Source: an uncultured Defluviitaleaceae bacterium (lineage in GTDB: Bacteria; Bacillota; Clostridia; Lachnospirales; WRBF01). Taken from it: DNA of 57,668 nucleotides. Shown here piece by piece: positions 2,134 to 55,753 of the stretch. The notes beneath the pieces are model-generated. The model had not been told where the DNA came from. It was given only the letters and a program-made list of their open reading frames with translations, and made no database searches. Positions within the stretch are counted from its first letter, which is position 1, and every line of letters starts with the position of its first letter. The stretch covers positions 1 to 57,668 of the forward strand of contig CAYMOU010000001.1 of the NCBI GenBank assembly GCA_964392115.1, in the 5' to 3' direction. The position numbers and the translations under genes are program-made.

Positions 2134-2293
2134 TAATATGAATTTCTACGCAAACTTCTGTCACCCATACCCGTCCTATGACCCAAACATATCAAAAAAA
2201 GTTGACAACCAAGCAAAAATACTATACGATACAATGAACGGAAACTAACCTTTTATTAATTAATAAATAAAATAAAAATACAAGGTGAATCAA

Positions 2294-2713
2294 ATGAATA
2301 TACAAGATATAAAGGAAATCATTCCACACAGATACCCTTTTTTGTTGATTGATAAAATTATTGAGCTGGACCCCTTAAAAAGAGCCGTTGCTCAAAAGAA
2401 CGTTACCTTTAACGAAGAATTTTTCCAAGGTCACTTCCCGGGCGAACCTGTAATGCCCGGTGTTTTAATTATAGAAGCTATAGCCCAAACCGGAGCGGTT
2501 GCCGTGCTTTCCCATCCGGATTATAAAGGGAAAACGGCTTATTTTGGAGCTATAGATGACGCCAAATTTAGGGCAAAAGTTGTGCCCGGAGACGTGTTGA
2601 CACTGGAAATAGAGATAGTTAAGATAAAGAAAGTTGCCGGAGTGGGCAAGGGTGTAGCCACGGTAAACGGTAAAAAAGTAGCCGAAGCAACCATTACATT
2701 TATGATAGATTAA
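2294..2713 (+). CDS. fabZ: 3-hydroxyacyl-ACP dehydratase FabZ
   Basis: HRYPFLLIDKI and FFQGHFPGEPVMPGVLIIEA hot-dog motifs. AAGGTG 6 nt before ATG 2294; the ORF track starts at GTG 2285. Confidence 0.9.
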   Translation: MNIQDIKEIIPHRYPFLLIDKIIELDPLKRAVAQKNVTFNEEFFQGHFPGEPVMPGVLIIEAIAQTGAVAVLSHPDYKGKTAYFGAIDDAKFRAKVVPGDVLTLEIEIVKIKKVAGVGKGVATVNGKKVAEATITFMID

Positions 2714-2761
2714 TTTAAACGGATTTTTGGACTTCTCCAAAGTCCTACGGTAGGTGAATGT

Positions 2762-4126
2762 ATGTTTAACAAAATATTGATTGCAAACCGGGGCGAAATT
2801 GCCGTTAGGATAATTCGTGCGTGTAAAGAACTGGACATAGGCACGGTTGCGGTTTTTTCAGAAGTAGACAGAGGTGCGTTACATACCCAGCTTGCCGATG
2901 AAGCTATTTGTATCGGAGGAAACAAACCGCAGGACAGCTACCTGAATATGCAAAACATAATCTGTGCAGCCTGTGTTACCAAGGCCCAAGCCTTACATCC
3001 CGGCTTTGGTTTTTTGGCTGAAAACGCAACCTTTGCCACTATGTGTAACGAATGCAACATTACCTTTATAGGCCCCAAAGCCGAAACCATAGACCTTATG
3101 GGCGACAAGGCAAACGCCAGAAAGCTAATGAAAAGTGCAAACGTACCCGTAATTCCCGGCTCCGAAGGGCTTATTTCTTCTATAGAAGAAGCCAAGGAAG
3201 AAGCGGAAAGGCTGGGCTATCCGGTTATGCTGAAAGCAACGGCCGGCGGCGGAGGCAGGGGTATACGTATAGCAAGAGATTACGAACAACTGGTGCAAAT
3301 GTACCATGCCGCAAAAACCGAGGCCAAAACTGCCTTTGGAGACGACGGAATATATCTTGAAAAGGTAATAGAAAACGCTCGTCATATAGAAGTTCAAATT
3401 CTGGGTGATTCTCAAGGAAATATTATTCATCTGGGAGAACGTGACTGTTCTTTGCAAAGACGTAACCAAAAAGTTCTGGAGGAAGCTCCGTCCGTAGCTA
3501 TTTCCAACAAAAAGCGTCAAGAGTTGGGACAAATTGCAGTAGCGGCGGCAAAAGCGGCGCAATACCAAAATGCGGGCACCATAGAATTTTTATATGACAA
3601 AAACGACAATTTCTACTTCATGGAAATGAACACAAGAGTACAGGTGGAACATCCCGTTACCGAGATGGTTACAGGAATAGACATAATAAAAGAACAAATT
3701 CGTATAGCCGCAGGTATGCCTATGTCCGTTAAGCAAAGCGATGTAAAGATCTCCGGACACGCCATAGAATGCCGCATTAATGCCGAAAACCCCGAGTTGG
3801 ACTTTGCTCCCTCTCCCGGTACGGTTAATTACTTGTTCTTACCGGCCGGCGGTTTAGGCTTGAGGGTGGATTCCGCAATGTTTGCCGGATACACCATTCC
3901 GCCTTACTATGATTCCATGATAGCAAAAATAATTGCTCACGGCAGTACCAGGCAAGAAGCCATAGCCAAAATGAAAAGAGCCTTATCCGAATTGGTTATA
4001 GAAGGCGTAAACACCAATGTGGATTTCCAGCTTGACCTCTTGGGCAACAAAAACTTTTTGAACGGAAAATTTGATACCTCTTTTTTACAACGAATTCTTG
4101 ACAGTAAAGTAAACGCTGATAGTTGA
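2762..4126 (+). CDS. accC: acetyl-CoA carboxylase biotin carboxylase subunit AccC
   Basis: 454 aa. N-terminus [24 protein letters not shown]-grasp GGGGRG loop, [15 protein letters not shown] motif. Confidence 0.95.
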
Positions 4127-4157
4127 TTTAAGCGTTTATCTAAGTAAATACAGAAGG

Positions 4158-5039
4158 GTGGTACATTTGAACCTTTTTGGAAAACGTAAATATGTACCCA
4201 TAAACAAACCACCTGAAGGTCGTGTACCCGTAATACCCGATGGGCTTTGGGTAAAATGCGGGTTATGCGGCAAAACGGTTTATTCCAAAGATTTAACACA
4301 GTATAAGCTTTGCCCTCATTGCAAGGGATGCTTTCGTTTGTCTGCTCCGGAGCGTATAAATTTAATAACTGACCCGGACAGTTTTGCGGAAATGAATAAA
4401 GATATGGTACCGAAAAATCCCTTGGATTATCCGCAATATCTTGAAAAAATCCAAGCTATTTCCAAAAAAACCGGTTTAAAAGAAGCGGTGGTAACCGGCA
4501 CTTGCAGCATAAACGGCAGCGAATGTGTAATGTGTGTTATGGATTCTCATTTTATTATGGGAAGCATGGGGTCCGTTGTAGGCGAAAAAATAACCCGTGC
4601 TTTTGAATACGCTACCGAGAAGAAGCTTCCGGTAGTGGTATTTGCAGCCTCCGGCGGTGCCAGAATGCAGGAGGGTATAGTTTCTCTGATGCAGATGGCG
4701 AAAATTTCTCAAGCGGTTGCAAAACACAGCGAAGCCGGTTTATTATACATTGCCTTTTTGACAGACCCAACAACAGGCGGCGTAACAGCAAGTTTTGCCA
4801 TGCTTGCAGATATTATCCTGGCAGAACCGGGAGCTTTAATCGGATTTACCGGCCGCAGGGTTATAGAACAAACCATAAAACAAACCCTGCCGGACGATTT
4901 TCAAAAGGCAGAACATCTTTTGCAGCACGGTTTCATTGACAGAATAGTTCAAAGGCAAAATATTAAGTCCACCTTGGCAACTATTTTAAAATTGCACCAA
5001 AAGAGAGAAATTCCCAAAGAGCAACAAGAAGCAGAATGA
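4158..5039 (+). CDS. accD: acetyl-CoA carboxylase carboxyltransferase beta subunit AccD
   Basis: N-terminal Zn ribbon CGLCGKTVY...CPHCKGCF followed by a carboxyltransferase domain. Alternative in-frame TTG at 4167 lies behind GAAGGGTGG. Confidence 0.9.
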
Positions 5040-5095
5040 TAATTATCATAAAGACTTTGAAAGAGGTTCTTTTAGATATTTAAGGACTGATTCAT

Positions 5096-5920
5096 ATGAG
5101 TACACAAGTAATGAATATAGTAAACCTATCCCGTAAGCCCTCCAGACCCACGGCCTTCGAATTTATTAACGGAATTTTTAAGAATTTCGTTCAATTTTAC
5201 GGAGACAGGTATTATAAAGACGATGCGGCGGTTATCGGCGGCATAGCTAGCCTTGTGGGTATGCCTGTAACAGTTATAGGCATACAAAAAGGCCACGACT
5301 TACAAGAAAATATAAACAGAAACTTCGGTCAACCTCATCCCGAGGGTTATCGCAAGGCCTTGAGGCTGATGAAACAGGCTGAAAAATTCGGCAGACCGGT
5401 TATCAATTTTATCAATACACCCGGTGCTTTCTGCGGCATTGAAGCAGAGGAAAGAGGACAGGGTGCGGCTATTGCCAACAATCTGTTTGAAATGTCCCTG
5501 TTAAAGGTGCCTGTAATTTCTATAATTATAGGCGAAGCCGGAAGCGGCGGTGCCTTGGCCCTTAGCGTTGCGGATAAGGTTTGGATGTTGGAAAATTCCA
5601 CGTATTCAATACTTTCGCCGGAGGGCTATGCCTCCATTCTCTGGAAGGATGCCTCAAAGGCGGATAAAGCTGCACAGCTGATGAAGCTAACAGCAGCCGA
5701 TCTTAAAGGCATGGAAATTATAGATAAGATTATTCCGGAGCCGGAAGACGGCGTTGATATTGAGGATGCTCAAGGTTTTAAACAGGTTGTCACCGAATTA
5801 AAACAAAATCTTATTTCAGAAATTAAAAATTTATCTTCAAAAGATACAGAGACCCTCCTTGCCGAACGTTACGAAAGATTCAGAAAATTCGGTGAGTTTG
5901 AAGAACCGGAGATGGATTAA
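5096..5920 (+). CDS. accA: acetyl-CoA carboxylase carboxyltransferase alpha subunit AccA
   Basis: [36 protein letters not shown] and [13 protein letters not shown] motifs typical of AccA. Confidence 0.9.
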
Positions 5921-5977: not shown

Positions 5978-6002
5978 GTAACCCTTTCGGGTTACTTTTT
6001 TT
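5978..6002 (+). terminator. Rho-independent terminator after accA
   Basis: GTAACCC-TTTC-GGGTTAC hairpin followed by T7. Confidence 0.7.
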
Positions 6003-6119
6003 ATGCAAAAATATTTGACTAAACCGTCCGTCAAAACCCCAAAAACAAACCCGCCGAACATGACACATATCGAAAAGTCTGTACATAAAATGAATTAGAG
6101 TTAATTTGGAGGGATTGAG

Positions 6120-6536
6120 TTGGAGAGCAAAAAGTTTGCAATTATAGGCGGAGACAAGCGAAATTATTACCTTGCCAACGAGTTGAAGCAAGATGGACAT
6201 ACGGTAAAACTATTCGGTTTTTCCAAATATGACAGCGAAGGTTTGTATAGGCAAAGCGGGTTGTACGAAACAATAGACGGTGCGGACTATATTATAGGCG
6301 GTATACCGGCCAGCAACGACGGGCTGTTATTAAATATGCCTTATGAAAATGACAATATATCTGCTGAAGATTTGTTCCGGCTGATTAAAAAACACCAAGT
6401 ATATTTTGCGGGCTATATAAAAAGTGAACTGGTGGAGCTGGCGGAGCGTTTTCAGGTTAATATAGTGGATGTATTGAAAAAAGAAGAATTATCCATATTA
6501 AACGCAATTCCTACTGCATTTGGTAAAAAGGTATAA
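6120..6536 (+). CDS. dpaA: dipicolinate synthase subunit A (SpoVFA/DpaA), N-terminal part, interrupted by the intervening element
   Basis: TTG start 6 nt after GGAGGG. FAIIGGDKRNYYLANEL Rossmann-like N-terminus matches the SpoVFA layout. Homology ends at ...ILNAIPTA (codon GCA 6516-6518). The last 5 codons plus stop (FGKKV*) come from the insert. Confidence 0.85.
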   Translation: MESKKFAIIGGDKRNYYLANELKQDGHTVKLFGFSKYDSEGLYRQSGLYETIDGADYIIGGIPASNDGLLLNMPYENDNISAEDLFRLIKKHQVYFAGYIKSELVELAERFQVNIVDVLKKEELSILNAIPTAFGKKV

Positions 6537-6557
6537 AATATAAAGAGAATTAAAATT

Positions 6558-6610
6558 TTGAGGGAGTAAACCTTTTTTCCGGCATAAAAAATAGGTTTTC
6601 TCCCTCAAAG
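6558..6610 (+). repeat. GAGGGA-type palindromic hairpin (family copy a), just inside the left end of the element
   Basis: TTTGAGGGAGTAAACCT...AGGTTTTCTCCCTCAAAG inverted repeat, 20 nt after the truncated dpaA stop. Likely terminator. Confidence 0.6.
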
Positions 6611-6719
6611 TCTCTCTTTCCTAAAAAGCCGAACAAAGAGCCGAGTTTTTAAAATTTATATAAACAAAGTCGTGAAAATATTATTAGAAATATAATGAAT
6701 TGGAAAGTGTGAAAATGTA

Positions 6720-6748
6720 TTGACAAATCTCCAACATAAGTATAGAAT
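6720..6748 (+). promoter_or_regulatory. sigma-A-like promoter for the ABC transporter operon
   Basis: TTGACA (6720-6725), 17-nt spacer, TAGAAT (6743-6748). Confidence 0.5.
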
Positions 6749-6774
6749 TAAATCATACTAAACATATATGTTTA

Positions 6775-7452
6775 ATGGACTGGATGGTTATTATGGATTG
6801 GAACTTTATAAAAGAATACGCTCCCATGTATGGAGAAGCTGCTGTTTTAACAGCTAAAATTGCTGCTATAGGAATATTTTTTTCCATAATAACAGGCATA
6901 GTGTGCAGCGTGGTTCGGTACTGTAGAATACCAATTCTAAAACAAATTTCCGGGCTTTATATTGAATTATCCAGAAATACACCATTATTGATACAATTAT
7001 TTTTCTTATATTTTGGATTGCCGAAGATAGGCATAGTTTTGGACTCGGAACTGTGTGGAATAATAGGGCTTAGTTTTTTGGGCGGCGGCTACATGGCAGA
7101 AGCTTTCCGAAGCGGACTGGAATCGGTCGAAAAAAAGCAGTATGAATCCGGTCTGTGTTTGGGCATGAGCTCGGGGCAAATTTTAAGGTTTGTTGTAATA
7201 CCCCAAGCCATTTCGGTTTCGGTGCCTGCGGTTTGTTCCAATATAATTTTTTTGATTAAGGAAACTTCCGTATTCAGCGCCGTTGCCTTGGCTGATTTAA
7301 TGTTTGTGGCTAAGGACTTAATCGGGCTGTATTACAAAACAGATGAAGCCTTATTTATGCTGGTAATGTCGTATCTGTTGTTGCTTTTACCTATTTCCCT
7401 AATTTCCGCTGCTGTTGAAAGGAGGGTTAGGTATGCAGGATATGGGCATTAA
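6775..7452 (+). CDS. polar amino-acid ABC transporter permease (His/Glu/Gln/Arg/opine family)
   Basis: 225 aa, multi-TM. EAA-type loop AEAFRSGLESVEKKQYESGLCLGMS. In-frame alternative ATG at 6793. Confidence 0.85.
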   Translation: MDWMVIMDWNFIKEYAPMYGEAAVLTAKIAAIGIFFSIITGIVCSVVRYCRIPILKQISGLYIELSRNTPLLIQLFFLYFGLPKIGIVLDSELCGIIGLSFLGGGYMAEAFRSGLESVEKKQYESGLCLGMSSGQILRFVVIPQAISVSVPAVCSNIIFLIKETSVFSAVALADLMFVAKDLIGLYYKTDEALFMLVMSYLLLLLPISLISAAVERRVRYAGYGH

Positions 7453-8110
7453 TGTTTTGTTTCAGGGCAATAGCTTTATGCGATTACTGGAAGGTTTATG
7501 GGTGACGGTGAGGATTTCCCTGTTGTCTGTGGGGATTTCCATATTGCTGGGCATAGTATTGGGTCTGATTATGACAGTAAAAAATCCTGTGATAAAGCTC
7601 TTGACCGGTTTATATATAAACTTTGTCAGAATAATGCCCCAGCTTGTGCTGTTATTTTTGGTTTATTTTGGGGTGACAAAAAGTTTTGGTATAAACTTGT
7701 CCGGCGAGATTTCCGCAATTATCGTTTTTGTGTTTTGGGGTACGGCGGAAATGGGTGATTTGGTACGGTCTGCAATAATTTCTATACCCAAGCACCAATC
7801 GGAAAGCGGCAAGTCTATTGGCCTAAGCACCCTGCAGATATATTATTATATCATTATCCCACAAACCCTTAAACGTCTTATTCCCAACGCTATTAACCTT
7901 ACCACAAGAATTATAAAAACCACCTCCTTGGTTGCATTGATAGGAGTTATAGAAGTATTGAAAGTGGGACAGCAAATAATCGAAGCTTCTCGGTTCACAA
8001 TGCCAACGTCAGCCTTATGGATTTATGCAGCTATATTCGCTTTATACTTTGCGGTCTGCTACCCCATATCCTTGTTGGCAAGGAAGCTTGAGAAAAGTCA
8101 GAGTGAGTGA
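7433..8110 (+). CDS. polar amino-acid ABC transporter permease, second subunit
   Basis: GGAGGG 7421-7426 precedes ATG 7433; the ORF track starts at TTG 7415. Multi-TM with an ABC permease fold signature. Confidence 0.85.
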   Translation: MQDMGINVLFQGNSFMRLLEGLWVTVRISLLSVGISILLGIVLGLIMTVKNPVIKLLTGLYINFVRIMPQLVLLFLVYFGVTKSFGINLSGEISAIIVFVFWGTAEMGDLVRSAIISIPKHQSESGKSIGLSTLQIYYYIIIPQTLKRLIPNAINLTTRIIKTTSLVALIGVIEVLKVGQQIIEASRFTMPTSALWIYAAIFALYFAVCYPISLLARKLEKSQSE

Positions 8111-8121
8111 GGAGCGGTTTC

Positions 8122-8871
8122 ATGAAAAACGGTGAAAAACTACTGGAAATAAACAATCTATACAAAAAATTCGGGGACAACCATATCCTTAAAAATATCT
8201 CCTTCAGCGTTAACCAAGGCGAGGTTGCGGTGGTAATCGGCCCGTCCGGTTGCGGTAAGAGTACCCTACTTCGATGTATTAACGGGCTTGAATCCATAGA
8301 GACCGGCGGAGAAATCACGCTGGGCGGTGTTAACCTTATGTATAAAAACACCGATTGGAGAAAAGTCCGTCAACAAATAGGTATGGTATTTCAAAGCTAT
8401 GATTTGTTCCCCAATATGACCGTTATGCAGAACATTCTGCTGGGTCCTACAAAGGTCCAAAAGATTAAACCGGAGGATTGTATTAAAACCGCAGAAAGCT
8501 TGCTCTCCAGAGTAGGCCTTTCTGACAAAAAAAATGCCTATCCCCGAGAATTATCCGGCGGACAAAAACAACGTGTGGCCATAGTCAGGGCGCTGATTAT
8601 GAACCCGAAAATTATGCTTTTTGATGAGGTAACAGCCTCCTTAGACCCGGAAATGGTCAGAGAGGTTCTAAACGTAATTTTGGAACTTGCAAGAAGCGGC
8701 ATGACCATGATTATAGTTACCCACGAAATGCAATTTGCCAAAGCGATAGCCGATAAAATCGTGTTTATCGATGACGGTGAAATTGCAGAAATAACCACAC
8801 CGCAGGAGTTTTTCCAAAACCCCAAGACGGTACGGGCGAAAAAATTTATCAATATATTTGACTACAGTTAG
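8122..8871 (+). CDS. amino-acid ABC transporter ATP-binding protein (GlnQ/ArtP-like)
   Basis: Walker A GPSGCGKST, signature LSGGQKQRVAIVRAL, Walker B MLFDEVTASLD. GAGGAG precedes ATG 8122. Confidence 0.9.
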   Translation: MKNGEKLLEINNLYKKFGDNHILKNISFSVNQGEVAVVIGPSGCGKSTLLRCINGLESIETGGEITLGGVNLMYKNTDWRKVRQQIGMVFQSYDLFPNMTVMQNILLGPTKVQKIKPEDCIKTAESLLSRVGLSDKKNAYPRELSGGQKQRVAIVRALIMNPKIMLFDEVTASLDPEMVREVLNVILELARSGMTMIIVTHEMQFAKAIADKIVFIDDGEIAEITTPQEFFQNPKTVRAKKFINIFDYS

Positions 8872-8881
8872 GAGACTGGAT

Positions 8882-9772
8882 ATGAAGACGAAAATTTTAG
8901 CACTGCTGATTACTTTGATTTTGGTAACGGGTTTAACTGCCTGCGGCAGTCCCAATCCCTCAAGCAATGATGTGCAAATTAATACAGAAAAAACGGCATC
9001 ACCTACTCCGGAAAAAACTCTTGCAAGAACTCCGGAAGAAATTAAAACAAGCGGTAAGGTAGTAATAGGCGTATTCAGCGACAAGAAACCCTTTGGTTAT
9101 GTGGATGAAAACGGTGATTATCAAGGATATGATATTTATTTTGCAAGAAGAATCGCCGAAGATTTAGGCGTTGAACTTGAATTAATTTCCGTTGAACCTG
9201 CCAGCCGTGTAGAGTATTTGGTTACAGGTAAAGTAGACATAATTCTGGCAAATTTCACCGTAACAGAAGAAAGAGCCGAAAAGGTTGATTTTGCTCTACC
9301 CTACATGAAAGTTGCTCTGGGTGTGGTATCTCCCGAAGCCTCTTTGATAACCGACCCTGATCAATTAAACGGCAAAACTCTTATAGTTTCTAAGGGAACA
9401 ACAGCAGAAACTTACTTTACAAAAAATTACCCCGATGTTAAGCTGTTAAAATTTGACCAATATTCCGAAGCCTTTAACGCCTTGCTGGACGGTCGTGGAG
9501 ATGCTCTTTCTACAGATAACACAGAAGTGTTGGCATGGGCATTGGAAAACCAAGGCTTTAAAGTAGGGGTTGAATCCCTGGGTAATATCGATACTATTGC
9601 ACCGGCGGTTCAAAAAGGCAACACCGAGCTTTTAAACTGGTTAAATGACCAAATAAAAGCTCTGGCAAACGAAGAATTTTTCCACAATAACTTTAACGAA
9701 ACCCTTGCCGGAGTTTACGGAGACGCCGTAAATCCCGATAGCTTGGTTGTTGAAGGCGGTATAGTAGAGTAA
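8882..9772 (+). CDS. amino-acid ABC transporter substrate-binding lipoprotein
   Basis: AGGAGA precedes ATG 8882. Signal peptide with lipobox LTAC. PBP type-3 domain features (GVFSDKKPFGYVDENGDYQGYDI). Confidence 0.85.
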   Translation: MKTKILALLITLILVTGLTACGSPNPSSNDVQINTEKTASPTPEKTLARTPEEIKTSGKVVIGVFSDKKPFGYVDENGDYQGYDIYFARRIAEDLGVELELISVEPASRVEYLVTGKVDIILANFTVTEERAEKVDFALPYMKVALGVVSPEASLITDPDQLNGKTLIVSKGTTAETYFTKNYPDVKLLKFDQYSEAFNALLDGRGDALSTDNTEVLAWALENQGFKVGVESLGNIDTIAPAVQKGNTELLNWLNDQIKALANEEFFHNNFNETLAGVYGDAVNPDSLVVEGGIVE

Positions 9773-9802
9773 TAGTAAGGTATAGTACAAAACAGTAATT
9801 CC

Positions 9803-9834
9803 TAACCCGTATCTTTTGGTACGGGTTATTTTTA
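9803..9834 (+). terminator. Rho-independent terminator after the transporter operon
   Basis: TAACCCGTA-loop-TACGGGTTA followed by a T-run. Confidence 0.7.
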
Positions 9835-9942
9835 TGCTGATTTACCCTCCGTAGATAATTCTGAAAATTAAGCGAATACAGACAAACAAGGAATGAATAA
9901 ATACCTATATTATAGGATTATTTAATCAGGCGGTGTTTTCCG

Positions 9943-11469
9943 GTGAAAAAAGCAGTTGTATATTGCAGAGTTTCCACAGACAAGGAGGATCAAAAGAACT
10001 CCTTGGATAATCAGCGAAAATTCTTTTCAGAATATATTTCTCGTAACCCGGAATGGGAATTCGTTGATATATATGTGGACGAGGGATTAAGCGGCACAAG
10101 TACAAAAAAAAGAAAGGCCTTCAATCAAATGATAGCAGACGGCGAAGCCGGACTTTACGACTTGATTCTGACCAAAGAAATCAGCCGTTTTGCCAGAAAT
10201 ACCTTGGACAGCATATATTACACCCGTTTATTGAAATCTAAAAATATCGGGGTATATTTTATAAACGACAATATAAATACCCTGGACCCGGACAGCGAAT
10301 TAAGGTTAACCATAATGGCAAGCATCGCCCAGGAGGAAAGCCGCAAGACCTCCGACAGAGTAAAATGGGGTCAAAGGCGTTCTATGGAAAAAGGCGTGGT
10401 TTTCGGTGCAAAGGTCTACGGATACAGCTTGGTAGGCGGTCAACTGTCTGTGAATGAGGAAGAAGCCCGGGTTGTGAAACTTATCTTTTTCAAGTACCTT
10501 ACCGAAGGCAAAGGGGTAAATATCATAGCCAGGGAATTGGACGAAAGAGGTATAACCACTCCAACCAAAATCAAGCACTGGACACAGGCCACAGTCTTGC
10601 GGATTCTAAAAAATGAAAAATACGCAGGCGTCTTAAAACAAAAAAAACAAATCACCACCGATTATCTTAATCATTACAGAAAACGCAACGAAGGCGAAGA
10701 GGACTTTGTAATAATACAAGATCATCACCCGGCAATAATCCAAAAAGACACCTTTCAAAGGGTACAGGAGGAGCTAAAAAGACGACTTAACCATAAGTTT
10801 GACAAAACCAAGTATTCCAACAGATATTATTTTTCCGGGAAAATAATTTGCGGTCAATGCGGAACTAGATTTAAAAGAAGATGCTACAACCGTAAAGCAA
10901 AAAATCCCCAAACCGTATGGGAATGCGGAGCTTCCGTAAGGTACGGAAAAAAGAAAATAAACCAAGCAGGTTTAGAAGTGGGCTGCGATAACAAATTTGT
11001 AAAAGAAGAAGCTTTAAAATTGGGCTTATTAAATGCTTTGGATATTTGCCTTCCCGATAAGCAAAAAATTATTAATAATATCGTAAAAATTTTAACAAAA
11101 GTATTATCAGCCAATACGAACGAAGATTTACAAACCCAAAATCTGAAAGACAGCATCCAACGCATTGAATCCAAAAAGAAAAAACTAGTTGAACTATATA
11201 TGGATAAGATGATAACAAAAGAGGAATTTCAAGAAACAAACAATGAATTATTGAGATTATCCCAATTATACACCACGGATTTAGAAAAAGCAGCGAATCT
11301 ACATAATCAACAACAAAATCCGGACGAACTTTTACGTATTATTCGTTCAGAGATAGAAAACATAGTGAATTGCAGGGTTTTCAGTGATGAAGTTTGCAAG
11401 AGTGTTTTGGAAAAAATCATTATTCACAGCCGAGATAATATGGAATTTTTCTTAAAGGGAAATTCCTAA
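9943..11469 (+). CDS. large serine recombinase (SpoIVCA-like site-specific recombinase)
   Basis: 508 aa. N-terminal resolvase catalytic motif VVYCRVSTDKEDQ. Recombinase domain. Zn ribbon CGQCGTRF...WECG. Coiled-coil C-terminus. GTG start. Confidence 0.9.
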   Translation: MKKAVVYCRVSTDKEDQKNSLDNQRKFFSEYISRNPEWEFVDIYVDEGLSGTSTKKRKAFNQMIADGEAGLYDLILTKEISRFARNTLDSIYYTRLLKSKNIGVYFINDNINTLDPDSELRLTIMASIAQEESRKTSDRVKWGQRRSMEKGVVFGAKVYGYSLVGGQLSVNEEEARVVKLIFFKYLTEGKGVNIIARELDERGITTPTKIKHWTQATVLRILKNEKYAGVLKQKKQITTDYLNHYRKRNEGEEDFVIIQDHHPAIIQKDTFQRVQEELKRRLNHKFDKTKYSNRYYFSGKIICGQCGTRFKRRCYNRKAKNPQTVWECGASVRYGKKKINQAGLEVGCDNKFVKEEALKLGLLNALDICLPDKQKIINNIVKILTKVLSANTNEDLQTQNLKDSIQRIESKKKKLVELYMDKMITKEEFQETNNELLRLSQLYTTDLEKAANLHNQQQNPDELLRIIRSEIENIVNCRVFSDEVCKSVLEKIIIHSRDNMEFFLKGNS

Positions 11470-11536
11470 AAAAATAATTTACGCTACCTCTTTCCCAAAC
11501 ACAGTACCCACTGCCGAAGGAGCAATACAAATAGCC

Positions 11537-11980
11537 ATGCAGAACACCGATTTTACCCTGCACAGCAGTAATGTAATGGTAATCGGTTTCGGCAGAATAG
11601 GAAAAATCCTGGCAAAAATGTTGCAGGGCATAGGAGCAAACGTTTATATGGCGGTAAACGGATACGACAAGGCCGCTCTAGCCTCCGGCTACGGCTATCA
11701 TGCGGTAGACGTAGAAAAATTAACCGATTATTTGGGCAATATGAACATTATTTTCAATACTGTACCCAAGATGCTGCTTTACAACGCTAATATGAAGTAT
11801 ATAAACAAAAACTGCCTTATTATAGACCTGGCATCCACACCTTTCGGAGTAAACTTCGAACACAGTAAGGATTTCGGTTTAAATGTGTTGTATGCAAATT
11901 CCTTGCCGGGAAAGGTTGCTCCGGCAACTGTAGGTCATTATATAAAAGAAACAATCTACAGTATTTTAAAGGATATGTAA
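11537..11980 (+). CDS. dpaA: dipicolinate synthase subunit A (SpoVFA/DpaA), C-terminal part
   Basis: Frame is open upstream to the junction (PTAEGAIQIA precedes M 11537). NAD-binding VMVIGFGRIGKILAKML and C-terminal LPGKVAPATVG match the SpoVFA layout. No independent SD. Confidence 0.85.
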   Translation: MQNTDFTLHSSNVMVIGFGRIGKILAKMLQGIGANVYMAVNGYDKAALASGYGYHAVDVEKLTDYLGNMNIIFNTVPKMLLYNANMKYINKNCLIIDLASTPFGVNFEHSKDFGLNVLYANSLPGKVAPATVGHYIKETIYSILKDM

Positions 11981-12207: not shown

Positions 12208-12789
12208 ATGAGGCTGGAAAATATCAAAATTGGATTTTGCCTGACCGGCTCGTTCTGTACTTTTACTAAAGTTTTTAAAGAAATAGGAAATTTGGTTAAC
12301 GAGGGAGCAATAGTTACACCCATAATTTCTTCTGTTGTAGACCAATGTGATTCCAGGTTTATTACCGCCGGTGACACTAAGACCGTTCTGAAGGACATCA
12401 CCGGAAATGATGTTATAAACACCATTTCTAAGGCCGAACCCATAGGCCCTCAGAAATTGTTTGATATAATGGTTGTTGCACCCTGTACCGGAAATACCAT
12501 GGCAAAGCTGGCCAACGGTATTACCGATACGCCGGTAACCATGGCTGTTAAGGCACATTTACGCAATAATCTTCCTGTTGTAATAGGAATATCAACAAAC
12601 GACGGTTTGGGAGCCTGTGCAAAAAATTTGGGATTGTTGCTTAACACAAAAAATTTCTACTTTATACCCTTCGGACAAGACGACCCTGTAAATAAAGAAA
12701 AGTCACTGGTTTTGCGTGAAACCAAAATGATGGATGCAGTATGTGAGGCGTTGGTTGGAAAACAATTGCAACCTATGCTTGTGGGCTAA
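12208..12789 (+). CDS. dpaB: dipicolinate synthase subunit B (SpoVFB/DpaB)
   Basis: KIGFCLTGSFCTF, VVAPCTGNTMAKLANGITDTPV and FIPFGQDDP are closely colinear with B. subtilis SpoVFB. GGAGGG SD. Confidence 0.92.
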   Translation: MRLENIKIGFCLTGSFCTFTKVFKEIGNLVNEGAIVTPIISSVVDQCDSRFITAGDTKTVLKDITGNDVINTISKAEPIGPQKLFDIMVVAPCTGNTMAKLANGITDTPVTMAVKAHLRNNLPVVIGISTNDGLGACAKNLGLLLNTKNFYFIPFGQDDPVNKEKSLVLRETKMMDAVCEALVGKQLQPMLVG

Positions 12790-12908: not shown

Positions 12909-13349
12909 TCATTTTGTTATGTAATACAACTCTTGACATGGATAATCAAAAACAGTCAAAAGTTCACCGCATTGAAAGCCCATGTTTTGATATAGTTTTC
13001 TTGCAGCAACACCTTGTTGGTCACCCTCACGATAAGTTATAACTTTTAGTCTTGTTCCCGGCGTGAATTGAGAAATTAATTCTAAAATAAGCGATTTTGC
13101 AATCCCGGTTTTACGATATAGTGGATGCACAGCTAAAAAATTCAATTCGCCGGTACTGCGTGAGAACGCCAAGGCGCCAACTACAGTATCTTCTACTTTG
13201 GCTATCAGAGCCTGTTTATGATGAATACACTCCAATAGAGCTATTTTGTATTCTTCCATATCCAAACCCGGGAAATTTTCTTTTACAAGGTGCAGTAAGT
13301 CCATCCAACCGGTTAAATCCTGCTGTTGAGCAAATGTTATAAACATCAT
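12909..13349 (-). CDS. GNAT-family N-acetyltransferase
   Basis: 146 aa. Acetyl-CoA-binding motif LAVHPLYRKTGIAKSLI. GGAGG SD. Confidence 0.8.
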   Translation of the reverse strand: MMFITFAQQQDLTGWMDLLHLVKENFPGLDMEEYKIALLECIHHKQALIAKVEDTVVGALAFSRSTGELNFLAVHPLYRKTGIAKSLILELISQFTPGTRLKVITYREGDQQGVAARKLYQNMGFQCGELLTVFDYPCQELYYITK

Positions 13350-14247: not shown

Positions 14248-15651
14248 ATGTATAACTCCAAATCCAAAACCGCCGAAAAATTTATCTGTAACAGCGAAAT
14301 CATCGAAACTTTAGAATACGCCGTAGAGGCAGGAAAAAATGAAGAAACAGTACAAAACATACTGAATAAGGCTGCTTTGTTTGGCGGCTTAACCCATAGA
14401 GAAGCAGCTGTATTGTTGCTGGCGGACGACAAATTCGAAGACCAAATTTGTTCTGTGGCTACAAGCATAAAGAATAAAATATACGGTAGCAGAATAGTAA
14501 TGTTTGCGCCTTTATATCTTTCAGACCATTGCGTTAACGAATGCGGATACTGCGGTTATCGTTGTTCAAACAAGACTAACAGAAGAAAACTTACCCAAGA
14601 TGAAATCAAAAAAGAAGTAGAGGCCCTGCAACGTATGGGACACAAACGCCTGGCGCTGGAAACCGGAGAAGACCCGGTGAATTGTCCCATAGAATACGTA
14701 TTGGAGTCCATTAAAACCATATATTCCGTGAAAACAGAACACGGCGAAATCAGGCGTGTAAACGTAAACATAGCCGCAACAACTGTAGAGAATTACGCTA
14801 AATTAAAGGATGCCGGCATAGGTACATATATCTTGTTCCAGGAATCTTATCATAAACCCACGTATCAAATGTTCCACAAGGCAGGACCCAAACACAGATA
14901 CGACTACCACACCGAAGCCATGGACAGAGCCATGGAAGGCGGTGTCGACGATGTTGGCGTAGGCGTACTTTTCGGTCTGTATGACTATAAATACGAAACC
15001 GTCGCCATGCTTATGCACGCAGAACACTTATCGGATACCTTCGGCGTAGGGCCTCATACCATGAGTGTTCCGAGAATTTGCCCGGCACCCGGAGTAAGCA
15101 CTGATGAATTTCCTTATCTTGTTAACGATAAAGAGTTTAAGCGTATAGTAGCCGTATTACGTTGTGCCGTACCCTACACAGGTTTAATCCTTTCCACCAG
15201 AGAACAAGGCGACTTCCGTGATGACCTTCTGAAAGTGGGTATTTCTCAAATTTCCGCAGGCTCCGCAACAGGCGTAGGCGGTTACAGTTTAGAAGCAAGC
15301 CAAGCACCCCAATTCGAAATCCACGACCACAGAAGCTTAAACGATATGGTGGGCATACTATCCGAATCGGGTTATATTCCCAGCTTTTGTACAGCCTGTT
15401 ACAGAGAAGGAAGAACCGGCGAAAGGTTTATGCGACTTGCCAAAACCGGACAAATCTCCAACGTCTGCCTTCCTAACGCTCTGCTCACTCTAAAGGAATA
15501 CCTTTTGGACTATGCAGACGAAAAAACCAAAATTGCCGGTTTAAAACTTATAGAAAATCAGTTAAACTATATAGATAACAACATCATGCGTACTAAAACA
15601 GAACTTTGGCTTGATAAAATGGATAGCGGAGAGAGAGATTTCAGAGTATAA
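14248..15651 (+). CDS. hydG: [FeFe]-hydrogenase H-cluster radical-SAM maturase HydG
   Basis: 467 aa. Radical-SAM CVNECGYCGYR. ThiH-like core. C-terminal Cys motif SFCTACYR. Confidence 0.9.
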   Translation: MYNSKSKTAEKFICNSEIIETLEYAVEAGKNEETVQNILNKAALFGGLTHREAAVLLLADDKFEDQICSVATSIKNKIYGSRIVMFAPLYLSDHCVNECGYCGYRCSNKTNRRKLTQDEIKKEVEALQRMGHKRLALETGEDPVNCPIEYVLESIKTIYSVKTEHGEIRRVNVNIAATTVENYAKLKDAGIGTYILFQESYHKPTYQMFHKAGPKHRYDYHTEAMDRAMEGGVDDVGVGVLFGLYDYKYETVAMLMHAEHLSDTFGVGPHTMSVPRICPAPGVSTDEFPYLVNDKEFKRIVAVLRCAVPYTGLILSTREQGDFRDDLLKVGISQISAGSATGVGGYSLEASQAPQFEIHDHRSLNDMVGILSESGYIPSFCTACYREGRTGERFMRLAKTGQISNVCLPNALLTLKEYLLDYADEKTKIAGLKLIENQLNYIDNNIMRTKTELWLDKMDSGERDFRV

Positions 15652-15775: not shown

Positions 15776-16957
15776 ATGTCTTTGCAAAACACTCCACAGG
15801 CAAACAGATTGCACATAGCGTTTTTCGGCAGACGCAACGCCGGTAAATCATCGCTGATGAATCGCTTTGCCAACCAAAATGTAGCCATCGTTTCTGATAT
15901 TCCCGGCACAACCACCGACCCTGTCACAAAATCCATGGAATTGCACCCTCTGGGACCGGTTGCGCTTATAGACACCGCCGGCTTTGACGACGAAGGCTTA
16001 CTGGGCGAGGCACGCATAGCACAAACCCGCAACGCCCTCAAGAAAACAGATGTTGCCGTTATGGTTTTAAGACAGGGCTGTGATTTAAGCTTTGAAACGG
16101 AATGGTTGGAATCCGCAAAAAAACAGGGCACAGTGGCTATAGCCGCCGTAAACGCCTGCGATTTGCATACAAACTATGAAGAATATGCAAAATGCCTATC
16201 CAAGCAACTGGATATTCCCGTATGTAACGTCAGTGCCCTAACCGGCCAAGGATTGGGAGAACTTCAACGTCTGATTATAGAAAACGCTCCAACAGATTTT
16301 GAATTGCCTGAAATAGCTACCCACCTTGTAGAAAAAGGCGCTCATGTTTTGTTGGTTGCTCCTCAAGACATTCAAGCCCCAAAGGGTCGCCTGATTTTAC
16401 CTCAACAACAGGTCATCAGAGATTTACTGGACGGAGATTGCTCGGTAACGGTGGTTACCGCAAAAATGTTGGATGAAGGCCTTCAAAAACAGCCGGATTT
16501 GGTAATTTGTGACTCCCAAGTTGTAAAACAGGTCTATGACAAAATACAGGGTAAAGTTCCGCTTACCACCTTTTCCGTATTAATGGCACGCTACAAAGGC
16601 GATATACAAACATTTATTCAGGGTGCCGCCGCCATAGACAATTTAAAAGCCGGAGACAGAGTACTTATAGCCGAAGCCTGTACCCACAATGCTCTGGATG
16701 GCGATATAGCCAGAATACTTCTACCCAAACTGTTAAATCAAGCCGTCCCGGGCATAATTACCGAGATTGCGTCAGGCAAAAATTTCTTAAACCATACCCA
16801 AGATTACGCCTTGGTTATACACTGCGGAGCCTGTATGTTTAATCGTCGATATATGCTTTCACGTATCAACCAATGCAAGCAGAAATCCCTACCCATGACC
16901 AATTACGGTGTAGCAATTTCAAAATTAACCGGAATATTGGATAAATTGGTATATTAA
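15776..16957 (+). CDS. hydF: [FeFe]-hydrogenase maturation GTPase HydF
   Basis: P-loop GRRNAGKSSLMN, DTAG. C-terminal cluster ligands EACTHN...HCGACM. Confidence 0.9.
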   Translation: MSLQNTPQANRLHIAFFGRRNAGKSSLMNRFANQNVAIVSDIPGTTTDPVTKSMELHPLGPVALIDTAGFDDEGLLGEARIAQTRNALKKTDVAVMVLRQGCDLSFETEWLESAKKQGTVAIAAVNACDLHTNYEEYAKCLSKQLDIPVCNVSALTGQGLGELQRLIIENAPTDFELPEIATHLVEKGAHVLLVAPQDIQAPKGRLILPQQQVIRDLLDGDCSVTVVTAKMLDEGLQKQPDLVICDSQVVKQVYDKIQGKVPLTTFSVLMARYKGDIQTFIQGAAAIDNLKAGDRVLIAEACTHNALDGDIARILLPKLLNQAVPGIITEIASGKNFLNHTQDYALVIHCGACMFNRRYMLSRINQCKQKSLPMTNYGVAISKLTGILDKLVY

Positions 16958-28182: not shown

Positions 28183-28417
28183 ATCGCAAAAATAAAAGTT
28201 CCTGAAATGTTCGATAACCTATCATTTTGAACCTACATCTCTTCAACGGGTTTCCTTTACTCGTGGTGTACGTCAGACCGCAAGATAATTCCCTTTGGGC
28301 AGCGGAAGGCGGAAACCATGACGCGGATACCCACCTAGCAATAGCTAGGTGTCAAAATATAGGACCGGCATTTCGGGGTTATCATAAACGAAAGTCCGTA
28401 GGGCTTGCGTTTTTTTA
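28183..28417 (+). ncRNA. candidate structured ncRNA or orphan leader, family unassigned
   Basis: Closing stem GATAACC (28213-19)/GGTTATC (28377-83). Internal helices CACCTAGC-AATA-GCTAGGTG, GGTGTACGTCA...TGACGCGGATACCCACC, CCTAT.ATTTTGA/TCAAAATATAGG. Terminator ACGAAAG...CTTGCGT+T7 (28388-28417). The only ORF here has no SD. Confidence 0.35.
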
Positions 28418-38510: not shown

Positions 38511-39296
38511 TTAGAATGATTGGGTTTTGGAGTAAGTATCGGTAATCGAATTGATGGCAGCATTGATAAAGGCTCCGTTTGTGGGCTTTTTGTTTTCCAG
38601 CGACCTGTAGCCGATTATCTCGTTGAATTTCTTGGAATATCCTTTAGTCCAAGATGAGGTTATGGCGTGCCTGATGGCTCGCTCTACACAACCGCAGTCT
38701 GTACCGAAATGTTTTGCTATTTCGGGGTAGACTATTTTTGTAAGTCCGTCCATTGCCTTCTTATCCTTATAGCACATTAAAATAGCATTTTTAAGATAAG
38801 AATAACCCTTTAAATTGCCCGGGATGCCAAGTTTGTAGAGCATATCATCCACAAAGGCATTAATGTCAAATCTGTTGAAATTATAGCAGCTTATATTGTT
38901 TTCTCTGTATTCACAAATATGTATCAACCGTTTAACCAACATATTCATCTCAAATGGTTTGAGAATAAAATAGTCTGCACCAAGCAGCATAGCTTCTTGG
39001 GTTACTTCTTCTTTGCTGACAGAACTTAGCACTACGCAGGCAGGGCGCTTGGTTACGCCGGAGTTGCTTAATTCCAACAGTACTTCCATACCGTCCTTTA
39101 TGGGCAGAATAATATCCAAAAGCACAACATCAGGCTGATAGTGGTAAATGGCATTTAAGCCATCCAAACCGTTATGAACCACGGAGACTATCTCAAACCT
39201 ATCGGTTTTCTCCAGGTTTGAGACAAGTAGGCTGCACATTTCCTTATTATCCTCAATTATTAATAATGTATATTTTTCCGGGTTTATATAGTCCAC
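38511..39296 (-). CDS. spo0A: sporulation master regulator Spo0A
   Basis: REC domain (LLIIEDNKEM...VVLLDIILP) plus Spo0A-specific C-terminus (KGYSYLKNAILMCY...VERAIRHAI...KPTNGAFI). The start codon is ambiguous. Confidence 0.93.
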   Translation of the reverse strand: MDYINPEKYTLLIIEDNKEMCSLLVSNLEKTDRFEIVSVVHNGLDGLNAIYHYQPDVVLLDIILPIKDGMEVLLELSNSGVTKRPACVVLSSVSKEEVTQEAMLLGADYFILKPFEMNMLVKRLIHICEYRENNISCYNFNRFDINAFVDDMLYKLGIPGNLKGYSYLKNAILMCYKDKKAMDGLTKIVYPEIAKHFGTDCGCVERAIRHAITSSWTKGYSKKFNEIIGYRSLENKKPTNGAFINAAINSITDTYSKTQSF

Positions 39297-45768: not shown

Positions 45769-46845
45769 TTAGTCCACCTCCTTGCTTTCGGAAATATATG
45801 AAATCGAACGCATGATTTTGGACGCTATATTGTTTAAATGCACTGTCTTGTCACAAAGGTTCGCTTCTACCACAGCCCGGGGCATACCGTATACCGTACA
45901 GCTTTCTTCGTTCTGCGCTATACAGTAACAATTACATTCCTCTTTCAGCAGGCGAACGCCTTCTTTACCGTCCGAACCCATACCTGTCAGTATTACGGCC
46001 ATTATTTTTTTGCCTTTGTAATGCTTTGCAACAGAAGCAAACAAAACATCGGCAGAGGGCTTAACGCCGTTTACATACTCTCCGTCGTCCAGAATAATAA
46101 TGTTTTTAGAATTCAAACGCATATGCCAACCGCCCGGGGCTATATAAACATGACCGCTGCGGAGTATATCTCCGGCAACAGCTTCGGAAACCGTTACCGA
46201 TAGCTGTTTGTTATTTAGGTTTGACGCAAAGTTTTTGGTGAAACCGGCAGGCATATGTTGAACTATAAGTATAGGTATATTTGGCGGTATGGTTAACCCT
46301 GTTAGGACTTTTTCCAAGGCTGTAGGCCCGCCTGTAGAGGCGGCAATAAGCAGAAGGTCGTAGTTATTACCGCCTTTCGGCTTTTTGCCATCCTCCTTTG
46401 CAAGAACTTTATTCTCGGTTTCGGTGTTCGAACCATGCTTACGTATCAGTTTTAAAATTGCCAAACGCAGGCCTCGTTTAACGGTTTTAAAGTTTTCTGT
46501 ATAACCTTCGTCTATGGGCTTGATTATTAAGTCATATTCTTTAATTCGCCTGGAAAATTCACCCGGTTCTGTTGCTTTTTCGTCGCAAAGCAGAACGGGT
46601 TTCAGTTCAGGATAGGAATACTCCAGAGCTTCCAGTATATTAAAAATGTTTAAATCTTCTGTTGCGGAGTCTATAATGACCAAATCAAATGGAGTATCCT
46701 TTAGCAAGGTAAGAGCAACAGATTCTTTGCCTTCAGTAAAAACCGTGGCTTGAGGAACAAGCTCTGCCAAGGCTATTTTTACAATTTTCTTATAAAGTAT
46801 TGAACTTGAAACAAACAAAACATTAGTAATGTCCATAATTTTCAC
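45769..46845 (-). CDS. cheB: protein-glutamate methylesterase CheB with atypical receiver domain
   Basis: C-terminal CheB_methylest domain (IAASTGGP...GMGSDG). The N-terminal REC has SS in place of the acidic DD pair. Confidence 0.85.
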   Translation of the reverse strand: MKIMDITNVLFVSSSILYKKIVKIALAELVPQATVFTEGKESVALTLLKDTPFDLVIIDSATEDLNIFNILEALEYSYPELKPVLLCDEKATEPGEFSRRIKEYDLIIKPIDEGYTENFKTVKRGLRLAILKLIRKHGSNTETENKVLAKEDGKKPKGGNNYDLLLIAASTGGPTALEKVLTGLTIPPNIPILIVQHMPAGFTKNFASNLNNKQLSVTVSEAVAGDILRSGHVYIAPGGWHMRLNSKNIIILDDGEYVNGVKPSADVLFASVAKHYKGKKIMAVILTGMGSDGKEGVRLLKEECNCYCIAQNEESCTVYGMPRAVVEANLCDKTVHLNNIASKIMRSISYISESKEVD

Positions 46846-46848
46846 ACT

Positions 46849-48861: not shown

Positions 48862-48939
48862 CTCAACTCTCCTTTTGTCAGAGTATGAATCCAAAAAATT
48901 AAAGAATTCTTGTATATTAATTTGTGAGATACAAAATAC

Positions 48940-48979
48940 ATAGAAATCTAGATGTATAGAAATCTAGATATATAGAAAC
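48940..48979. repeat. 2.5 tandem copies of a 16-bp unit upstream of the MCP gene
   Basis: ATAGAAATCTAGATGT / ATAGAAATCTAGATAT / ATAGAAAC. Inverted GAAATCT-like words recur at 49006-49040. Confidence 0.8.
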
Positions 48980-49017
48980 AGAGTTACAGACTGTTTTCGG
49001 ATTTTAGATTTCCTTTT

Positions 49018-49464
49018 TCAAATTTCTGTTTTCAGATTTCTATCCCCGAAAAATAACTTGTCTTCGTCTATAATCAGGAGCAAATCATTATCAAGTTCGT
49101 ATACGCCCAGCAATTTTTCTTTTACCTGCTCATCAACGTTAGCCGGCGGATTGTCGCAGAGAGATTCATCAATCACCAAAACATCTTCCGGTTCATCCAC
49201 GGCGAAGCCCACTATATCAGGCATTTCTTTTCGGGTTTTTAGGATAATGCAGTTTATGGGTTTGTCTTTGTTTATAGGCTCGTAACCCAGCATATGAGGC
49301 AGGTCAAAAACGGTTACTATTTGTCCTCGCATATTGTAAAGACCCATAATAAAAGGATATGCCGTGGGAGTAGGCGTACAGGTGATTTGCCTGTTTATTT
49401 CCTTAACGGAAGTAATGTTTACGGCGAACAGTTCACCCCAGAGCCGAAAACTCAACAGTTTCAT
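49018..49464 (-). CDS. cheW: chemotaxis coupling protein CheW
   Basis: 148-aa single CheW domain. Overlaps the cheA stop by 4 nt. Confidence 0.88.
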   Translation of the reverse strand: MKLLSFRLWGELFAVNITSVKEINRQITCTPTPTAYPFIMGLYNMRGQIVTVFDLPHMLGYEPINKDKPINCIILKTRKEMPDIVGFAVDEPEDVLVIDESLCDNPPANVDEQVKEKLLGVYELDNDLLLIIDEDKLFFGDRNLKTEI

Positions 49465-52466: not shown

Positions 52467-52903
52467 ATTTTATGCCTCCTTTTATTCGGCACATTAAAAA
52501 TATTCCCAAATTCCTTAATATTTTGGTTATTATTGATAATTGACTTATAGTATATTTTGCTACAAAATTTAATGTATTAAGTAAGCGAAAACCGGTGGTC
52601 CGGTACTAAAAATAAATCATAGGAATCAGTTGTCATAACTTAATTTACAGAAATGATTAAATATGCAATTATAGCTTTAATATAGTTAAAGTTGTTAATG
52701 CATCAATAATTTACAATACCATAAAGAAACCTAACATTCAATAGTCAACAGTCATAATAATGCCATATTATTGCACAGAGAATTATTATCAACAAAAAAG
52801 GATTACCGGTACATTAGGTTACATATAGTTACAAACATGACGAAGAAGTAACATTCTTCGTTAAAATCAGTATGAATTCGGTAAAAAATTCAAGATGTTC
52901 AAC

Positions 52904-52932
52904 TTGCAAAACAAAAATTCCTATGATATAAT
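52904..52932 (+). promoter_or_regulatory. sigma-A-like promoter upstream of ilvB
   Basis: TTGCAA, 17-nt spacer, TATAAT. Confidence 0.55.
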
Positions 52933-53007
52933 ACTGTAATTTAATTCGCCGATTTTCCGCTGTTTAACAGTAATTCCATCGGCAGTTTTAATCAAAGGAG
53001 AATTCCC

Positions 53008-54684: not shown

Positions 54685-54698
54685 TTGGAGGAATAACC

Positions 54699-55685: not shown

Positions 55686-55718
55686 TCAATCTTGACTTAT
55701 CTTTCATACAGCATTAAT

Positions 55719-55753
55719 CGATAGAGGAAACTTTTTTTAAAGTTTCCTCTATC
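55719..55753 (+). repeat. GAGGAAAC-variant palindromic hairpin (family copy f); terminator after ilvC
   Basis: CGATAGAGGAAACTTT-TTTT-AAAGTTTCCTCTATC. Confidence 0.7.

Follow-up and report, generated by a model that had tools for sequence, protein, structure and literature searches.

A number of sporulation genes are interrupted by intervening DNA elements; the published targets include spoVFB, sigK, spoVR, spsM, gerE, yabG, cotJC and spoIIID. Here we describe an element of this kind in dpaA (spoVFA), the gene for subunit A of dipicolinate synthase, on a stretch of 57,668 nt from an uncultured Defluviitaleaceae bacterium (contig CAYMOU010000001.1, assembly GCA_964392115.1), which was analysed at its full length and is referred to as the window. 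The gene is split by 4,997 bp of DNA that carries a large serine recombinase (LSR) and whose precise excision is predicted to restore it. The interruption had been pointed out in a preliminary description, and we discuss what became of its claims alongside the evidence that bears on them.

Skin elements reside in sigK and are served by the recombinase SpoIVCA in B. subtilis and by CD1231, together with the directionality factor CD1234, in C. difficile (PMC5025042; 10.1101/2022.02.25.481979). They range from 2.6 to 48 kb and their cargo is variable, the recombinase being the only gene that they have in common (PMC5025042; 10.1101/2022.02.25.481979). The element in the window resembles them in that its recombinase gene occupies the border and directly precedes the 3' fragment of the target gene, and in that precise rejoining would restore the open reading frame (ORF). 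It differs from them in that dpaA encodes an enzyme and not a sigma factor, so that the switch would gate one late product rather than a regulon, and furthermore in that no CD1234-like factor was detected in the window and the cargo is not of phage type. Expression of dpaAB takes place in the mother cell under the control of sigma-K (10.1101/2022.02.25.481979). The other subunit gene of the same enzyme, spoVFB (dpaB), is interrupted in Bacillus weihenstephanensis KBAB4 by vfbin, which is described as prophage-like (Abe et al. 2013, as cited in PMC4191935, PMC6957869 and PMC10747680). The two elements share a mother-cell gene of dipicolinate synthase as their target and vfbin is removed by its own serine recombinase during sporulation; whereas vfbin is a prophage-like element in subunit B of a Bacillus, the window element sits in subunit A of a clostridial host, carries a transporter and has an excision that is predicted.

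In B. cereus ATCC 10987 the gene gerE is interrupted by gin, which spans 28.6 kb, encodes three recombinases and restriction-modification genes and is rearranged by the LSR GirC; its partner GirX, a protein of 42 aa that is unannotated in several genomes, shows how easily such factors are missed (PMC5595907). Both gin and the window element are non-prophage intervening elements driven by an LSR, the latter differing in its size of 5 kb, its single recombinase and its transporter operon. Galperin et al. describe skin-like elements in cotJC of Laceyella sacchari and in spoIIID of Ruminiclostridium cellulolyticum, and their supplementary table features dpaA only with frameshifts, in two bacilli, and not as an interrupted gene (10.1101/2022.02.25.481979). 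The window LSR has a sister clade that adjoins cotJC, and the target gene is a different one. Full-text searches, in a body of literature that leaves out most subscription papers, retrieved no element intervening in dpaA/spoVFA; only other genes turned up, in keeping with the earlier remark that dpaA is not a classical target.

Beyond sporulation, the LSR XisF removes the fdxN element of heterocysts from a gene required solely by a terminally differentiated cell. The window LSR has XisF as one of its best named NCBIfam matches, but at 102.8 bits against a cut-off of 375 the two are not equivalogs, and the heterocyst elements belong to another phylum and another developmental programme. The Ccr recombinases of SCCmec and TnpX of Tn4451 excise non-phage cassettes without a separate directionality factor, and the window element shares with these systems the non-phage cargo and an LSR as the sole mobility gene. 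The matches of its LSR to CcrC (117 bits), CcrB (98.7 bits) and TnpX (PDB 2MHC, 9e-12) are weak and far below the family cut-offs (900), and it differs from these cassettes in the lack of a mobilisation gene and in a target that lies within a sporulation gene. The phenomenon as such is known; what appears to be new is dpaA as a target, a small non-phage transporter cargo and a dpaA-specific LSR clade.

The split dpaA gene and its reconstruction

The 5' segment of dpaA (6120–6511, + strand), identified by Pfam DpaA_N and by tblastn, begins with a TTG start codon and encodes residues 1–130 together with the CC of the codon for Pro131. The 3' segment (11509–11980, + strand) continues with the third base of that codon and runs to residue 287 and the stop, within a frame that is open from 11456 to 11980 and includes the NAD-binding GFGRIG motif (Pfam 2-Hacid_dh_C and Shikimate_DH). 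In tblastn searches with the fused protein, residues 1–135 match the left piece and residues 125–287 the right piece. The ORF that contains the 5' segment (6120–6536) is covered by DpaA_N over residues 5–118 and runs past the junction into the element, where it reads PTAFGKKV with the five codons FGKKV before the stop at 6536. The preliminary description had taken this ORF for the N-terminal third of DpaA; it is N-terminal, and the fraction was put too low, since the ORF holds 133 of the 287 residues (46%). The assignment of the frame ending at 11980 to the NAD-binding and C-terminal part, with dpaB directly downstream, agrees with the Pfam domains and with the position of dpaB (12208–12789, + strand), and the statements that homology stops at 6510–6518 and resumes after 11507–11515 also hold. 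The dpaB gene itself is intact and scores above both NCBIfam equivalog cut-offs (NF006161, 292.7 bits with a cut-off of 156; TIGR02852, 250.2 bits with a cut-off of 229).

Joining the two pieces in silico at an offset of 4,997 bp yields an in-frame gene of 864 nt encoding a DpaA of 287 aa, the length that had been foreseen for a product colinear with SpoVFA. With NCBIfam NF006162 (DpsA; cut-off 261) the fusion reaches 287.1 bits in one stretch, its residues 2–286 aligning to profile positions 3–290 of 297. Its residues 4–284 align to the solved DpaA structures PDB 2RIR and 3D4O without a gap at the junction, where the fusion reads ...ilnaiptaegaiqiamqntdf... and the structures ...iynsiptvegtimlaiqhtdy.... 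Species-representative genomes moreover supply 80 dpaA genes without an interruption that match the fusion, the majority across exactly 864 nt. These comparisons address the concern that the fragments might fail to rebuild a full-length protein, and confirm at the level of sequence that the two pieces, once rejoined, would make a complete and colinear DpaA. As to the second concern, a dpaA paralogue, tblastn found no other dpaA within the 57 kb of the window, the rest of the genome lying outside this scope.

Upstream of dpaA, the consensus of sigma-K known from work on B. subtilis (AC-N16/17-CATAnnnTA) is matched as a pattern at 6065–6092 (+ strand), where AC is followed after 17 nt by CATAAAATG. 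A terminator-like hairpin (5978–5995) lies 3' of the preceding gene, accA.

Attachment sites, recombinase and cargo of the element

The attP sites of LSRs are distinguished by a non-palindromic central dinucleotide situated between imperfect inverted repeats. At the left boundary of the element, attL (6480–6541, + strand) consists of a B arm contributed by dpaA, the dinucleotide CC at 6510–6511 and a P' arm (TACTGCATTTGGTAAAAAGGT...), whilst attR at the right boundary (11477–11538, + strand) consists of a P arm (ACCTCTTTCCCAAACACAGTA), CC at 11507–11508 and a B' arm that again belongs to dpaA. The attP was rebuilt as ACCTCTTTCCCAAACACAGTA-CC-TACTGCATTTGGTAAAAAGGT by joining those arms of attR and attL that belong to the element, and was then scanned for centres of dyad symmetry. 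With the centre exactly at CC 6510–11/11507–08, 18 of 24 positions are complementary, against at most 10 at all other centres; 200,000 random positions of the window gave a mean of 6.2 (standard deviation 2.3) and a probability of 5e-5 for 18 or more.

Because the symmetry peaks there alone, the crossover most likely takes place at the CC with which the Pro131 codon begins, and the rejoined attB is predicted to read ...AACGCAATTCC up to the junction and CACTGCCGAAGG... beyond it. The preliminary description had proposed recombination within a shared ACTGC core. The deletion of 4,997 bp and the resulting protein are borne out, and the core itself was probably off by a few bases and is most likely CC; the third base of the Pro131 codon, T on the left and C on the right, is a silent difference, and the restored protein is for this reason the one originally predicted. 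Apart from the symmetry peak, ACTGC was rejected as the crossover on account of a related minimal element (L154, see below) whose frame-restoring register also falls on the CC of the Pro codon. The motif NAIPTAEGA at attB is identical in 68 of the 80 intact dpaA genes and the CC is present in 77 of them. The element (6512–11508, + strand) is shown to be a 4,997-bp cassette, evidently integrated by its own LSR at the CC of the Pro codon in NAIPTAEGA, and it is predicted to be released as a circle carrying attP.

The LSR (9943–11469, + strand) is a protein of 508 aa with a GTG start codon and Resolvase, Recombinase and Zn_ribbon_recom domains (PF00239, PF07508 and PF13408), all of which score above their cut-offs. 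It is intact in that an alignment of homologues finds the catalytic YCRVST motif and every family-invariant residue in place. Its matches include PHROG 95 (integrase, 428 bits), PDB 3G13 (5e-42) and SprA (9DXH, 8e-21). The gene ends immediately upstream of the 3' piece of dpaA, its stop at 11469 leaving 37 nt to the right junction, close to the distance of about 40 nt first reported.

All five genes of the element lie on the + strand, the LSR being preceded by a four-gene ATP-binding cassette (ABC) transporter operon. A predicted sigma-70-type promoter (6720–6748, + strand; TTGACA, 17 nt, TAGAAT; 11 of 12 matches) is followed by two permeases of the polar amino-acid type (6775–7452, + strand, Pfam BPD_transp_1 and NCBIfam HEQRo_perm_3TM; 7415–8110, + strand, Pfam and NCBIfam). 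Next come a GlnQ/TcyN-like ATPase (8107–8871, + strand; Pfam ABC_tran, 128.9 bits), whose 297.7 bits against NF007027 (cut-off 379) are below the cut-off, as for the other equivalogs, and a family-3 solute-binding lipoprotein (8858–9772, + strand; Pfam SBP_bac_3, lipobox LTAC). A hairpin resembling an intrinsic terminator closes the operon (9803–9828, + strand). An inverted repeat near the left end of the element, 46 nt inside the junction, forms a perfect-stem hairpin with 22-nt arms (6557–6609, unstranded); the fold of 6540–6630 has a free energy of -29.4 kcal/mol (z = -5.4) and the hairpin is not conserved at other loci. It may be an insulating or bidirectional terminator, which could keep transcription that starts at the dpaA promoter from entering the cargo operon.

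The GC content of the element is approximately that of its flanks. No phage structural, packaging, lysis or replication gene was found in it, the sole PHROG match being the integrase, and as Pfam and NCBIfam identify the cargo as an ABC transporter, the earlier statement that it is not phage-like stands. Neither the ORF list nor Pfam revealed a relaxase, coupling protein or type IV secretion gene in the 5-kb element, where oriT was not searched for, and no riboswitch or other Rfam RNA was found within it. A defence function of the cargo was rejected, PADLOC giving generic ATPase similarity only.

Related loci, constraint and host context

Among 5.8 billion proteins, the closest homologues of the LSR are 67–69% identical and the next tier 45–53%. 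Contigs carrying homologues were fetched from metagenomic loci and probed by tblastn with the fused DpaA. Nine loci have dpaA fragments; the gene breaks at residues 125–135 in all nine, and in eight of them a related LSR adjoins the break. The LSR lies directly upstream of the 3' part of dpaA in L081/L082, L083, L084 and L087, as it does in the window, while in L085/L086, L088 and L154 it is encoded on the opposite strand with its 3' end adjoining the 5' part of dpaA. At the locus L099 the 3' part of dpaA begins at the same junction near the contig end and an LSR of the dpaA clade is located about 2 kb beyond dpaA, not adjoining the break. L154 contains a complete minimal element of 2,339 bp (9231–11571) at the same Pro-codon CC, consisting essentially of a small ORF and the LSR, with an attP whose inverted repeat is near-perfect (19/24) and an in-frame fused dpaA. 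It follows that both insertion orientations share the crossover dinucleotide, and that they differ only in which way round the CC stands with respect to the element.

The cargo ranges from almost nothing in L154 to a tripartite ATP-independent periplasmic (TRAP) transporter with sugar-acid catabolism genes and a GntR regulator in L081, and includes a helicase-like protein in L085, a giant S-layer homology (SLH)-domain protein in L087 and a lipase in L088; no cargo or non-coding ends common to the elements were found. Neighbour joining of 98 LSRs places the dpaA-linked enzymes together, and a sister clade of 65 loci (within L100–L175, many of them from the human gut) adjoins fragments of cotJC (Mn_catalase) beside cotJB in both orientations. 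Target specificity thus follows the phylogeny of the recombinase, and the targets are mother-cell sporulation genes. Examples of the cotJC clade are L122 (after 11521), L167 and L110, and interruption of cotJC seems far more widespread than the report from Laceyella sacchari. The targets of a further clade, from termite guts, look heterogeneous. When the 3' fragment was compared with cluster representatives, about 4 of the best 150 matches were short proteins that start at the same point, and as judged from such database matches the split dpaA is recurrent but rare.

Many of the related LSR genes, in the dpaA and cotJC clades alike, are overlapped at their start or directly preceded by a conserved ORF of 40–70 aa (L085, 3552–3716; L087, 7132–7296; L081, 9858–10004; L099, 1023–1196; L154, 9820–10026). 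It shares the motif IGVLRELYKRELIT..Q, belongs to no Pfam or PHROG family, and is a candidate directionality factor or partner protein. A promoter-like motif (GACAA, about 10 nt, CATAAAC) precedes some of these small ORFs; as a mother-cell promoter signature before the LSRs themselves, GACAA, 9–12 nt, CATA was rejected as too weak, occurring in 5 of 90 relatives. L088 has no such partner ORF.

Two of the loci show a more complicated arrangement. The dpaA of L087 is apparently in three pieces (8824–9177 and 13060–13197), with a second insert between residues ~247 and 242–287 that carries feoA, feoB and a 322-aa recombinase, which suggests nested or tandem elements within one gene. In L099 (2912–5488, - strand) dpaB is interrupted past APCTGNTLA, where it continues into the gene of an unrelated second LSR (498 aa), so that both dipicolinate synthase subunit genes seem to be interrupted in one organism.

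The metagenome-assembled genome (MAG) GCA_964655745, the congeneric source of L083, has a lysyl-tRNA synthetase (LysRS) 86% identical to that of the window and the same split arrangement. As synonymous divergence (dS) is saturated in every comparison, a numerical dN/dS was rejected and only non-synonymous divergence (dN) and the absence of disabling mutations were used. Between the two hosts dN is 0.064 for ilvC, 0.077 for lysS, 0.11 for the 3' part of dpaA, 0.125 for dpaB and 0.19 for the LSR, and the halves of dpaA are free of stops and frameshifts. By this measure the split dpaA is under purifying selection and constrained like dpaB. Divergence of the LSR is no smaller than that of the host genes, which fits an old insertion that has co-diverged with a still-working dpaA requiring rejoining; independent recent insertions are the alternative.

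As regards the host, its LysRS comes closest, among named organisms, to those of Defluviitalea and Defluviitaleaceae (72–73% identity). The window encodes Spo0A (38511–39296, - strand) with its receiver and Spo0A_C domains, which indicates that the host possesses the master regulator of sporulation; Spo0A and dpaB are the endospore-former markers within the window. At its right end (46020–57668) the window is syntenic with MAG GCA_964468805.1 (L248), with about 79–92% nucleotide identity and a LysRS identity of 97%. The MAG was compared at that end, and the protein collection contains no recombinase of ~95% identity and no intact DpaA that derive from it. Upstream of dpaA lie fabZ, accC, accD and accA (2285–5920), and downstream of dpaB a radical-SAM/BATS protein (14248–15651, + strand) and HydF (15776–16957, + strand) resemble [FeFe]-hydrogenase maturation genes. 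A 6S RNA (28196–28383, + strand; RF00013, 66 bits) is the sole Rfam match across the window.

Probable developmental excision and the competing explanations

By analogy with skin in sigK, vfbin in spoVFB, gin in gerE, SPbeta and yin, we consider it probable that the element is a skin-like one, which the LSR would excise in the mother cell so that dpaA is expressed with dpaB while the interrupted gene is retained in the spore. The element would stay put, and dpaA would be inactive, in the vegetative cell as well as in the forespore. In the terminally differentiating mother cell the LSR would pair attL with attR and delete the element as a circle, and the rebuilt dpaA would be transcribed together with dpaB from a late mother-cell promoter, leading to dipicolinate. 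The spore would then inherit the interrupted dpaA. The direction of recombination could be set by a tiny unrecognised ORF or by a factor acting in trans, or might need no factor at all.

Several observations weigh against developmental excision, and most concern its control. The sporulation LSRs CD1231, GirC and SprA require a directionality factor for excision from attL and attR, namely CD1234 (72 aa), GirX (42 aa) and SprB, respectively. A search with a hidden Markov model found no homologue of the small partner ORF anywhere in the window (best E-value 0.8), nor do the intergenic regions of the element contain a convincing small gene. The known factors share no similarity and can be as short as 42 aa, and a factor may therefore be missed or supplied in trans. 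There is no clear promoter of the sigma-E/K or SpoIIID type before the LSR, where a relaxed match was all that was found. In the congeneric MAG the LSR gene (L083, 60–200) lacks the first 20 codons, the upstream frame ending in ...VVVYNQGSSPR before a stop, and the catalytic YxRxS motif is degraded and frameshifted, which is either real decay or a MAG error. No empty dpaA site was found in a close relative, the nearest intact DpaA being 59% identical, and no reconstituted DpaA protein or excised junction was found in the databases. Finally, the view is one of 57 kb, and a second dpaA or another route to dipicolinate elsewhere in the genome is possible.

A first alternative is an ordinary integrative island for which dpaA is merely a conserved landing site, its excision being stochastic or in the service of transfer and not developmental. 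Cells that sporulate with the element in place would then make dipicolinate-poor spores, and the locus would be at most a population-level on/off switch for spore quality. In its favour, the LSR targets a highly conserved motif of the kind that any integrase would prefer; the cargo has its own predicted vegetative promoter, looks like ordinary accessory metabolism and is wholly different between family members, and neither a directionality factor nor a recognisable mother-cell promoter was found in the window. We nevertheless hold this explanation to be unlikely. The LSR clades repeatedly target genes that are used in the mother cell only (dpaA, cotJC and, in L099, dpaB), which is the signature of excision from a terminal cell line, and the strong constraint on the split dpaA and on dpaB in two diverged hosts would hardly be expected of carriers in which dipicolinate synthesis is routinely lost. 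Quite improbable, in our view, is an immobilised and decaying insertion with a dead dpaA, whose host would be asporogenous, form dipicolinate-free spores or use another route such as the EtfA-type synthesis of some clostridia. The missing directionality factor, the destroyed N-terminus of the closest relative's LSR and the absence of a reconstituted dpaA from the databases searched would all fit decay. A dead locus, on the other hand, sits badly with two intact dpaA halves devoid of stops and frameshifts, with a dN of the 3' part (0.11, at saturated dS) like that of dpaB, and with a window LSR that retains every invariant residue. Nor would the attP symmetry of 18/24 be kept without selection, and an intact dpaB above its equivalog cut-off and the presence of Spo0A speak for a living pathway.

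The break at residues 131–134 falls between DpaA_N (5–118) and the NAD-binding domain (from ~140), and a GAAGGAG sequence is located 14 nt upstream of an ATG at 11537; the two pieces might on these grounds be translated separately and assemble with DpaB, without any DNA rearrangement. We regard such a split enzyme as very improbable: the cut removes or splits NAIPTAEGA, the most conserved motif of DpaA, the GAAGGAG is merely the conserved coding sequence for Glu-Gly-Ala, no promoter is evident for the 3' fragment, and the att architecture and the LSR are left unexplained. The chance that the arrangement is an assembly artefact or a chimeric contig is slighter still. The window is apparently a single assembled contig that occurs once in the collection, but the junctions keep the reading frame to the exact base, dyad symmetry is seen in the rebuilt attP, and eight further loci, which come from different samples and assemblers, show this arrangement again.

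Putting the loci together, we tentatively suggest a wider reading, which is doubtful as a whole: dpaA would be a recurrent and previously unrecognised hot spot of developmental editing in uncultured clostridia, visited by one LSR lineage that has split into dpaA and cotJC clades. The dpaA clade would insert at the same CC in either orientation, with a cargo from none (2.3 kb) to transporters and catabolic islands, and the window element would have lost the small ORF and yet excise. If so, its LSR might have no need of a directionality factor and be controlled by its own expression, or a factor might be shared in trans between elements.

For annotation, the split means that the parts of dpaA (~138 and 147 aa) are annotated as small proteins in their own right or as pseudogenes, and as dpaA is used as a sporulation marker, organisms with the split gene can be scored as non-sporulating. 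The family also represents a natural set of LSRs and att sites with a defined 2-bp crossover in both orientations, which is of some use in recombinase engineering. The transporter cargo suggests that such elements can carry fitness genes of the vegetative phase that are discarded only from the terminal cell. If excision proves true, this lineage would rely on a DNA rearrangement for dipicolinate synthesis and, with it, for dehydrating the spore core and resisting wet heat, and dpaA would join those mother-cell genes that are kept as split ‘germline’ copies.

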